A DNA stretch of 64,000 nucleotides from positions 639,202-703,201 of the forward strand of contig CAZYUH010000001.1 in the NCBI GenBank assembly GCA_964650645.1, in the 5' to 3' direction. Below the pieces are notes generated by a model that worked only from the letters and a program-made list of their open reading frames with translations, did no database searches and was not told the DNA's origin. Position 1 is the first letter of the stretch, and each line of letters opens with the position of its first letter. The position numbers and the translations under genes were made by a program. The stretch is from an uncultured Candidatus Saccharibacteria bacterium. Lineage in GTDB: Bacteria; Patescibacteriota; Minisyncoccia; Phycocordibacterales; SBAW01. This document shows, piece after piece, positions 50,337-55,865 of the stretch.

Positions 50337-50666
50337 ATGAAGATTGTCAGTACGTACTTGGAAATTGATTTCAAGGACGAAGTGCTTGAGTCGCTCCCGA
50401 GAACGACGAGAATAGACGGCATCGAGGTGCTGAAAAGGGTGAGGGCGTCGCTCGGCTTGAAGATACGGAAGACGGCCGAGCGTAAAAGCCGGGAACTGCT
50501 CGAAAATAATCCTGACACAATCTCAATCGAGCATGCGGTCGAGTACGTGAACAAGACCGCCCTGACCTACGATAACGTGATAGCGATGCTCATCTTCCTG
50601 CTGCAGCAAGGGAAAGTGGCCGCAGCCTACGCCGGGCCCTTGCCGGTGTTCCAGCGCATCGACTGA
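50337..50666 (+). CDS. Hypothetical protein (109 aa)
   Basis: GC-typical codon usage, own terminator downstream. Confidence 0.4.
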   Translation: MKIVSTYLEIDFKDEVLESLPRTTRIDGIEVLKRVRASLGLKIRKTAERKSRELLENNPDTISIEHAVEYVNKTALTYDNVIAMLIFLLQQGKVAAAYAGPLPVFQRID

Positions 50667-53330: not shown

Positions 53331-53461
53331 CATGCGGGTAGTGCGATACACAACTCCTATACAGACGCGACAAGACCCACGGATGATCCGGGGGTAAGCC
53401 TATGTGTATGCATGCGTACTATACCACAAAGCGCCCGATTAAGGCAGGCGGAAAAATAAAA

Positions 53462-53505
53462 GGCCCTCGCTGCGACCGTCTCAAAAAGGGACGGGAGCGA
53501 GGGCC
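53462..53505 (-). terminator. Rho-independent terminator between uvrB and uvrA
   Basis: GGCCCTCGCT...AGCGAGGGCC 10-bp stem followed on the minus strand by TTTTATTTTT. Confidence 0.65.
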
Positions 53506-53674
53506 TTCGTCGTGCCGCCGCGGATTGGAAACGCGCGGCACGGATTCGAAGACTCGGAATTTCTCAAAAAGAACGGGGCGGACGCCGAGGCCGGGTGGGG
53601 GCCCTTCCTCCACGAATGGGGGCGGCTTCTGCAGAAGCCATGTTCGTTGGAGGATGCCCCGACGTCCATATATA

Positions 53675-53703
53675 ATAATACACCCTTTAGATACACATGT
53701 CAA
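53675..53703 (-). promoter_or_regulatory. Consensus-like sigma70 promoter (TTGACA-17-TATTAT) 28 nt downstream of the uvrB stop
   Basis: Minus strand TTGACAtgtgtatctaaagggtgTATTAT; points toward the terminator at 53505-53462 and uvrA. Confidence 0.45.
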
Positions 53704-53730: not shown

Positions 53731-55836
53731 TTATGCCTTGCGCTTTTTCGCCTTCTCTTTGGAGTCGCGCTGCGCGCGCTTTACCTTTCCCGCGTCCGCG
53801 CCGCGCAGGGCCGAGCGCTTGGGCGGCGCGCCGTTCGTAATAGCATACATCTCGTCGCGCAGTATGGCCGCGGTCTCGAAGTCGAGGTTCTGCACCGCGT
53901 CGGCCATGGCCGCGCGCTTTTCCGCGATGAATTTCTTCGGGTCCTTCTCGTACAGGCTCTTGTCCACGTCCAAGAGCTGCTGGACCGCGCGGCCGTGCTC
54001 GGAGCGCAACTCCTCGGTAATGTCCCTTATCGCCTTCTTGATGGTGGTAGGCGTGATGCCGTGCTCCTTGTTGTAGGCCATCTGTATGGCGCGGCGGCGG
54101 GCGGTCTCGCCCATCGCCTTCTTCAGCGACTCGGTCTCCTGGTCGGCGTACAGGATGACGCGGCCGCCCACGTTGCGCGCGGCGCGGCCGATGGTCTGTA
54201 TGAGCGAGGTTTCGGAGCGCAGGAAGCCCTCCTTGTCGGCGTCGAGTATCGCCACCAGCTCGACCTCGGGCAAATCGAGACCTTCGCGCAGGAGGTTGAC
54301 GCCCACCAGCACGTCGTACTCGCCTTTCCTGAGGTCGGTCAGTATCGTGATGCGGTCGAGCGTCTCGATGTCGGAATGGAGGTACGCCGCCTTGTAGCCG
54401 CGCTCTTTCAGGTATTCGGACAAATCCTCGGCCATCTTCTTGGTGAGCGTCGTTATGAGCACGCGCGCGCCGCGGTCTATGACGGCCGTCGCTTCTTCCA
54501 GCACGTCCTGCACCTGGCCCTTGGCGCCGGCCGTGCCGGTCACGGGACGCACGATAATGTCCGGATCGACAAGGCCGGTGGGGCGGATGATCTGCTCGAC
54601 GATGTTCCTGCCCGACTTTTCCCGCTCGTACGCCCCAGGCGTCGCCGACGTGTAAATGACCTGCCCCACGCGCTCCTCGAACTCCTCGAACTTGAGCGGG
54701 CGGTTGTCTATGGCTGACGGAAGGCGGAAGCCGTAGTCTATGAGGTTGACCTTGCGGGCGCGGTCGCCCTCGTACATGCCGCCAATCTGCGAGACGGTCA
54801 CGTGGCTCTCGTCTATTATGGTGAGGAAGTCCGGCGTGCCGTCCGGCTTGTGCGGGAAGTACGCCAGCAGCGAGTAAGGCGGCTCGCCGGGCTTGCGGCC
54901 GTCGAAGTGGCGCGAGTAGTTCTCGATGCCGTTGCAGTAGCCCATCTCGCGGATGCGCGCCAAATCGTAGTTCGTGCGGCGCTTGAGCCGCTCGGCCTCG
55001 AGCGTCTTGCCGGCGGCCTCGAGCCTGGCCAGCTGCTCCTTCAGCTCGTTCCTTATCTTCTCTATCGCGCGCAGGCGCTCGTCCTCGGGCGTCACGTAGT
55101 GCTTAGCCGGGAACAGGAACAGCGACGCGCCCGAGCTTACCTGCGCGCGCGTCGTTGCGTCTATGACGCGCACATCGCCGATTTTCTCGCCCGCAAAGTC
55201 CACCTTGTATATGACGCGCTCGCCTGTCGGCATTATCTCTACGCTGTTTCCCAGGGCGCGGAACTTGCCCGGCTCCAAATCGGCGGTCGTGCGCTCGAAG
55301 TAGATGTCGATGAGCTCGCGGATGAGCTCGGCGCGGCTCTTTGTGAGCCCCGCGCCGATTTCCAAATGCACCTTGCGGTACTCTTCAGGCGAGCCGAGCG
55401 CGTAAATGCACGACACTGACGCGACGATGATGACGTCCTTGCGCGTAAGCAGGGCCTGGGTCGAGGCGTGGCGCAGGCGGTCAATTTCCTGGTTTATCTG
55501 CGCCTCCTTCTCTATATACGTGTCGGAGGTCGGGATGTAGGCCTCCGGCTGGTAGTAGTCGTAATAGGATACGAAGTAGTGCACCGCCGCGTCGGGAAAT
55601 AAGTCGCGATACTCCTGCGCCAACTGGGCGGCCAGCGTCTTGTTGTGGGCTATAACCAGGGTCGGCTTGCCTATTTGCGCGATAACGTTAGCGCCGGTGA
55701 ACGTCTTGCCCGAGCCGGTAACGCCCAGAAGGGTCTGGTGGCGCTCGCCGGCCTTGATGCCCTTAACGAGCGCTTCTATGGCGCGGGGCTGGTCGCCAGC
55801 CGGGGCGTGGGCAGATTTAATGGTGAAAGTCGCCAT
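53731..55836 (-). CDS. uvrB: Excinuclease ABC subunit B
   Basis: [17 protein letters not shown] Walker A, helicase motifs, C-terminal UVR domain. Confidence 0.95.
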
Positions 55837-55865
55837 GCACGCCTACTATAGCAAACGTAAAAGAA

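Follow-up and report, generated by a model that had tools for sequence, protein, structure and literature searches.

The spacer between uvrB and uvrA in the window, which is the whole stretch of 64,000 nucleotides analysed here, probably carries an independently transcribed, structured and non-coding small RNA (sRNA) gene of about 215 nt, which would act by base pairing as far as a mechanism can be proposed. Three options had been raised for this segment in the first-pass annotation: an independent sRNA, a uvrA leader with conditional termination, and a long uvrB 3′ UTR with a fortuitous promoter-like sequence. The first option is favoured by promoter, hairpins and terminator that are kept in at least 14 relatives, by compensatory changes and by the lack of any conserved ORF. 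On this reading, the unit represents a new sRNA family, restricted to one lineage and familiar in kind; nothing about it is mechanistically surprising. It would provide a covariation-supported sRNA family with defined predicted ends in a GC-rich Paceibacterota lineage. A full-text literature search found no report of regulatory RNAs or sRNAs in Patescibacteria, Parcubacteria or the candidate phyla radiation.

The gene order on the minus strand of this GC-rich candidate-phyla-radiation window is tgt (57175-55955), uvrB (55836-53731; NCBIfam, 966 bits), a 379-nt spacer, uvrA (53351/53333-50697; 1226 bits) and uvrC. The start codon of uvrA is more likely ATG 53333 than GTG 53351. The closest named UvrB homologues, among the matches listed, show 79-88% identity and are annotated as Candidatus Adlerbacteria or Paceibacterota. 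The ATG of uvrB (55836) is located 8 nt past a TATAGT -10 box (55850-55845) and no Shine-Dalgarno sequence is present there (window 55834-55850, minus strand); uvrB in the window appears to be leaderless. Its stop codon (53733-53731, minus strand) is followed after 27 nt by the -35 hexamer of the unit.

A promoter and a terminator bracketing about 215 nt on the minus strand had been claimed, and both were found in place. All features of the unit described below lie on this strand. The promoter, TTGACA-17-TATTAT at 53703-53675, matches the consensus at 11 of 12 positions. It is composed of a perfect -35 hexamer TTGACA (53698..53703), a 17-nt spacer ending in AGGGTG and the -10 hexamer TATTAT (53675..53680). 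In a 2-kb scan, two promoter-like sites were observed against 0.4 expected, and a perfect TTGACA combined with a TAnnnT -10 occurs at only four sites on both strands of the whole 64-kb window. Transcription is predicted to start at about 53667-53669, and the predicted RNA extends from 53667 to about 53452. The MFE of the predicted 219-nt transcript is -105 kcal/mol (z = -6.3), and none of 200 shuffled sequences was as stable. Without the terminator, the fold z-scores are only -0.8 to -4.9 across members.

The predicted transcript opens with H1, an 88-nt 5′ hairpin in the MFE fold (53580..53667). Its closing stem of 12 bp is formed by GGACGUCGGGGC (53667-53656) and GCCUCGGCGUCC (53591-53580). 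The perfect 16-nt palindrome described earlier at 53624-53639 is present (GGCTTCTGCAGAAGCC) and makes up the apical sub-hairpin of H1 (GGCUUCUGCAGAAGCC). It is not kept in relatives, and the interior of H1 is variable. Two C-runs in H1 (53593..53623) have a predicted unpaired probability of 0.99-1.00. The first is GCCCCCAUU (53623-53615), and the second is the loop of GGG-CCCCCA-CCC (53604-53593). H1 is followed by a single-stranded linker, GCCCCGUUCUUUUUG (53565..53579), with the conserved core GYUCUU at 53574-53568, and by a conserved unpaired motif, UUCGAAUCC (53542..53550), just ahead of H2. H2 is a GC-rich hairpin in the predicted fold, CGUGCCGCGCG...GCGGCACG (53511..53542). The unit ends with the intrinsic terminator H3 (53452..53507), in which a hairpin with the arms AAGGCCCUCGCU...AGCGAGGGCCUU (53507-53460) is followed by UUUUAUUUUU, read as TTTTATTTTT at 53461-52. 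The strong terminator proposed at 53505-53450 was thus placed correctly within 2 nt. A simple terminator scanner missed H3 because its loop limit is 3-8 nt.

Loci of relatives were collected by exact-protein look-ups of UvrB homologues and by UvrB scans of genome and metagenome contigs. Close relatives are under-sampled in these scans and all family counts are lower bounds. Conservation in related genomes, which the first-pass annotation had put forward as a check, was seen in the layout of the unit: at least 14 distinct copies were found downstream of uvrB in relatives, several of them closely related. The members with UvrB at least 84% identical are the window itself (identical to L081), L083, L085, L086, L087, L088, L089 (identical to L092), L093, L171, L173 and L082. 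The last is cut off by the end of its contig and comprises only the promoter and the 5′ portion of H1. Three more distant lineages (L158, L106 and L114) also have the unit. A blastn search of the spacer against relatives gave almost no similarity, and only the uvrA leader aligned. The family was recognised by its structure, read by eye, and by descriptor searches. A descriptor search without the promoter requirement returned coding-region background only, apart from the known members.

The common order is a perfect TTGACA promoter, H1, a GYUCUU linker that is often followed by UUCGAAYC, H2 and the terminator H3. The -35 hexamer is a perfect TTGACA in all 13 full-length members. The distance from the promoter to H1 is 4-7 nt in 11 of them, 10 nt in L106 and 19 nt in L171. 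In L082, L083, L087, L088, L089, L093 and L171, the spacer likewise ends in RGGKG ahead of TATAnT. G[UC]UCUU follows H1 in 10 of the 13 full-length members; L114 has GAUCUU, and the exceptions are L158 and L171. The motif UUCGAAUCC is also present in L087, L088, L093 and L171, and related forms, UCGAAUC / UUGAAUCC, were found in L106 and L114. A GC hairpin with a U-tract terminator lies at the 3′ end of every full-length member. A C-run of at least four was found in all ten full-length members analysed (within H1 in eight), with a predicted unpaired probability of 0.3-1.0, and the G-runs of the members analysed are always paired.

The stems of the unit show covariation. The closing stem of H1 was examined in an independent MAFFT alignment of seven sequences including distant members. 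Standard pairs are formed in all 70 cells, and compensatory double changes are found in 5 of the 10 pairs. None of 500 shuffles reached the covariation score, and in slid controls 35-55% of cells were paired. MAFFT alignments of whole units were out of register between stem types; hence, a three-sequence seed and a covariance-model alignment were used. In this model-fitted alignment of seven full units, a kind of alignment that leans towards structure, 97% of cells are paired, and compensatory changes occur at 20 of 29 pairs; none of 500 shuffles scored as high. In the same model-fitted alignment, 97% of the H3 cells are paired, with compensatory changes in 9 of 11 pairs. The outer helix of H2 is 100% paired, with two of five pairs compensatory (alignments A5 and A9). 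The covariance model was trained on the window, L173 and L086 only. Among untrained members it gave 57 bits for L093 (E 3e-11), 46 for L088 and 44 for L087, followed by 24 bits for L089 (E 0.002), 21 for L085 and 21 for L158. The model found no second copy of the unit in the window.

A second model built on H1 only (R2) gave 38-66 bits on the sense strand and 19-29 bits on the antisense strand. Because of these much lower reverse-strand scores and the G-U pairs, the structure was assigned to the strand that would be transcribed from the promoter. The R2 search did not add any new true member. One match, in L125, was rejected, as it sits within the tgt coding sequence.

The members differ in their modules. 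The unit size is 165-338 nt among ten measured close-clade units. L158 consists of H1 and the terminator only. L106 and L114 share a 3′ domain that differs from that of the window; its motif, GGCUAGAGACUGA...CAGUCUGACAAA (L106 680-740 and L114 1555-1600), is absent from the RNA of the window. An insertion of two hairpins between the linker and H2 was found in L083 and L088, and in these two lineages only. This module of about 130 nt is 78% identical between them (L083 6238-6368 versus L088 7246-7372), and it suggests a modular gain or loss of RNA domains. H1 is also heterogeneous, with two hairpins in L088 and L093 and a different form in L171; the homology of the whole H1 is therefore not certain. 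The unit is absent between uvrB and uvrA in L090 and L174 (UvrB 81% identity). As these are close relatives, the unit is either dispensable or located elsewhere in them. From its occurrence, the RNA family appears to be specific to a Paceibacterota/Adlerbacteria-like clade of the candidate phyla radiation, and the alignments portray it as fast-evolving in sequence and modular, with its architecture kept.

Known RNA families do not account for the unit. Scans with Rfam 15 at gathering score, covering the whole window and five relatives, gave nothing at the unit. E-value scans also gave nothing, at E up to 10 for 551 nt around the unit and at E up to 5 for six relatives' loci. An Rfam scan of the segment had been suggested in the first-pass annotation, and no Rfam riboswitch matched. 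The 6C family (RF01066) did not match the window segment or six relatives, either at gathering score or at permissive E-values. ARAGORN found tRNAs elsewhere only and none at the unit. The housekeeping RNAs (SRP, 6S, RNase P and tmRNA) were rejected by the lack of an Rfam or ARAGORN match and by the missing unit at the locus in close relatives. Inspection by eye also ruled out SRP RNA, with neither a GGAA tetraloop nor the AGCA loop motif, and 6S RNA, the ends of which do not pair. A T-arm reading of UUCGAAUCC was dropped for want of a flanking stem. A retron or MITE was rejected on account of the single copy in the window and of the G-U pairs, which make the structure strand-specific.

For the sRNA gene, the following course of events can be proposed. 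A near-consensus sigma-70 promoter, placed directly behind uvrB, would drive the sRNA, which is probably highly transcribed, as judged from its promoter sequence. The transcript would open directly with the long stable H1 displaying the C-rich loops, continue through the single-stranded pyrimidine linker (GYUCUU, UUCGAAYC) and H2, and end at H3. The 5′-terminal hairpin and the terminator may confer stability. The exposed C-runs and the pyrimidine linker could then pair with G-rich or Shine-Dalgarno regions of mRNAs, with no chaperone involved; in particular, the GYUCUU linker could pair with an AAGGAG-type Shine-Dalgarno sequence via G-U wobbles. By analogy with 6C and RsaE/RoxS, such chaperone-free action in trans by base pairing is a tentative proposal, possible rather than likely.

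The RsaE/RoxS sRNAs of Firmicutes use unpaired C-rich or pyrimidine motifs for pairing with Shine-Dalgarno sequences, have their own promoter and an intrinsic terminator, and are chaperone-independent. The present RNA has similar predicted unpaired C-rich and pyrimidine motifs, a promoter and a terminator. However, there is no similarity to RsaE/RoxS in sequence or by covariance model, and the size and architecture differ. The second system, 6C of Actinobacteria (RF01066; B11/6C of M. tuberculosis, cgb_03605 of C. glutamicum), is also a stand-alone sRNA in GC-rich genomes. Both have a strong promoter of the housekeeping type, hairpins of high stability and loops with unpaired C-runs; for the present RNA, these features are predicted. 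Neither Hfq nor ProQ is involved when the C-rich loops of 6C bind G-rich mRNA sites (PMC6486639). The transcription of 6C is strong and its stability high, and it has been linked to the SOS response (PMC5014011). The present RNA is located inside a nucleotide-excision-repair locus. The SOS-like control raised in the first-pass annotation would have this analogy to 6C as its one support. On the other hand, Rfam gives no match for it, its length of 165-340 nt is about double that of 6C, and it occurs in a different phylum. Its architecture is one long multi-branched 5′ hairpin followed by the linker, H2 and the terminator, in contrast to the two simple C-loop hairpins of 6C. Each of the two hairpin loops of 6C carries a run of about six C; in the unit, all full-length members analysed have predicted unpaired C-runs of 4-7, which belong to a single large hairpin, in its internal or apical loops, and differ in number and position. 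That the unit is a counterpart of 6C in the candidate phyla radiation, namely an abundant, chaperone-independent C-loop sRNA which would tune DNA-damage response or replication genes with no recognisable LexA box here, is doubtful on this analogy. If it were true, few if any regulatory sRNAs would have been defined in Patescibacteria before this one. The family may also serve as a test case for metatranscriptome end-mapping and for whether C-rich-loop, chaperone-free regulation reaches beyond Actinobacteria and Firmicutes. In practical terms, it matters only modestly as long as no target or phenotype emerges.

An RNA that binds or sequesters a protein, or forms part of an RNP, is an unlikely explanation but a real alternative. 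In such a case the conserved stable architecture and the exposed C-rich loops would provide the binding sites, for example for a KH-type poly(C)-binding protein. The rapid drift of the sequence, while the shape, the C-runs and the short unpaired motifs are kept, would agree with it, and so would the high abundance suggested by the perfect promoter. No target complementarity was found in the duplex scan, which is also in its favour. The scan compared the sRNA with tiles of the window by RNAduplex, a weak method that ignores intramolecular structure; the uvrA leader showed no enrichment and ranked about 4100 of 5112, which lends no support to a pairing between the sRNA and uvrA. However, a repeated binding motif as in CsrB or 6S is lacking, no conserved partner gene adjoins the unit, and 6S, SRP, Y RNA and the other Rfam families do not match. 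In addition, its absence from the locus in close relatives would be unusual for a housekeeping RNP.

The position of the unit directly behind uvrB raises the question of its relation to the uvrB mRNA. In the window, from the uvrB stop (53731) to the unit, and in most members, no terminator lies in between. Therefore, uvrB transcripts probably run into the unit and end at H3, and H3 probably also terminates the uvrB mRNA. This part of the long 3′ UTR option stands. The fortuitous promoter that went with it was rejected: a perfect TTGACA is found in every full-length member, even where the unit is located behind other genes, namely a Cu-oxidase gene in L086 and a 71-aa ORF in L171. A structured 3′ UTR and terminator that stabilises or terminates the uvrB mRNA, with a secondary or non-functional promoter, is therefore improbable as an account of the whole unit. 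It would leave unexplained why the TTGACA and a TAnnnT box are kept at a fixed distance from H1 in 13 of 13 full-length members, and why the promoter is retained even behind a terminator-like hairpin (L106). H1, the linker and H2 are likewise not needed by a mere terminator. If H3 ends the uvrB mRNA, the sRNA would resemble a 3′-UTR-type sRNA with its own promoter. DapZ and MicL of enterobacteria are of this type, and the present unit is similarly placed directly 3′ of a coding gene with no intervening terminator and with its own promoter. In contrast to them, its promoter is in intergenic DNA past the stop codon rather than inside the CDS, it has no Hfq context, and its identity is kept behind different upstream genes (L086 and L171).

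An ORF of 61-63 aa encoding two membrane helices (MNK..HLYRA..GYRHW) is located downstream of uvrB in many Paceibacterota, in convergent orientation. It was found on the minus strand in L085 (6597-6785), L087 (7348-7539), L105 (4255-4434) and L140 (4243-4428), and it is also present in 13 other loci. At several loci, one bidirectional terminator serves both the ORF and the sRNA. No Pfam family matches the ORF, and tblastn did not find it in the window. As this ORF directly follows the terminator in L085-L089, L093 and L173 and is separated from it by about 240 nt in L114, the RNA could be conceived as an antisense or antitoxin-like partner of this hydrophobic ORF in a type I toxin-antitoxin-like pair. 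This is very improbable. Neither the window nor the examined L083, L171 and L158 loci contain the ORF, yet all of these have the RNA (the L106 contig ends about 400 nt beyond the unit in this survey), and the ORF occurs without the RNA in seven distinct loci, for example L105 and L140. The overlap would be limited to the terminator hairpin, and no Pfam toxin family is matched. Because the ORF is missing from the window and is found without the RNA, the two are regarded as independent.

The unit is upstream of uvrA on the same strand, and its terminator ends about 100-120 nt before the start codon, as would be the case for a uvrA leader with conditional termination by a riboswitch or an attenuator. 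Nevertheless, this option is highly improbable. uvrA has its own extended -10 promoter, TGGTATAGT (53426-53418, minus strand), and its own conserved leader, both of which sit downstream of the terminator of the unit. The leader (within 53346-53426, minus strand) consists of ACACAUAG, the hairpin ACCCCCGGAUCAUCCGUGGGU (53395-53375) and UUGUGUAU. Moreover, the unit is uncoupled from uvrA in several relatives. It is followed by an antisense ORF and a Cu-oxidase gene in L083, other genes separate it from uvrA in L093, and in L173 it has no uvrA downstream. In most relatives, uvrA and its leader are present but the unit is missing. Neither an antiterminator alternative nor a riboswitch match in Rfam was found. 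Because the unit occurs apart from uvrA in these three loci and behind other genes in L086 and L171, it is not an attenuator of uvrA, nor is it a passive tail of uvrB. The annotation of the uvrB-uvrA spacer can be corrected in this respect: it is neither an attenuator nor junk here.

The regulation of uvrA is better sought in its own leader hairpin, which is far more widespread than the sRNA unit. About 45 distinct Patescibacteria loci, among them a Saccharibacteria locus, have this hairpin upstream of uvrA, and the sRNA unit is missing from most of them. It is kept in 38 of 39 distinct aligned loci, those without the unit included. RNAalifold on 39 sequences gave seven pairs, four of them compensatory, and G-U pairs on the sense strand. 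The consensus is an extended -10, ACACAUAG and a hairpin ACCCCYNGG-(AGCAN)-CCNRGGGG, often with a distal UUGUGUA able to pair with ACACA. Examples elsewhere are L090 7060-7090, L143 1890-1930 and L007. The leader matches nothing in Rfam, occurs only once in the window and is a candidate for a cis-regulatory RNA or an operator of uvrA.

The segment had been described as free of ORFs, which was wrong: a 62-codon frame runs from ATG 53669 to TGA 53481, and the same frame is listed as a 71-aa GTG ORF (53481..53696). The non-coding conclusion stands because this ORF is not conserved. A small protein gene in the form of a leaderless 62-codon ORF is scarcely credible, as, against an ATG 5 nt after the -10, a uvrB in the window that also looks leaderless and long open frames in L085 and L087, the start codon is missing in L088, L089, L093, L173, L158, L106 and L114, the frames end early, after 9-11 codons, in L083 and L086, and the peptides are unrelated and rich in R, S and P, as expected of a GC-rich structured sequence.

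Several minor observations concern the surroundings of the unit. The gap between uvrB and uvrA is 2 to about 2800 nt long in L083-L174, and its contents vary: a multicopper-oxidase gene with an antisense ORF, a cytidylyltransferase-like ORF and several small ORFs were seen. The uvrB-uvrA junction thus looks like an insertion hot spot in the clade. In the wider Paceibacterota, this gap is mostly filled by assorted small genes and not by the unit. Another structured element was found 3′ of uvrB behind a TTGACA promoter in two loci (L133 4231-4370 and L143 1440-1560). Its promoter spacer (..AAAGGGTATATAAT) is like that of the window, its closing stem is CCCAGAUA/UAUCUGGG, and it is followed by a small membrane ORF with no terminator. 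This element may be a diverged relative of the sRNA or an unrelated leader. Finally, a 109-aa ATG ORF is located antisense between uvrA and uvrC in the window (50337-50666, plus strand).
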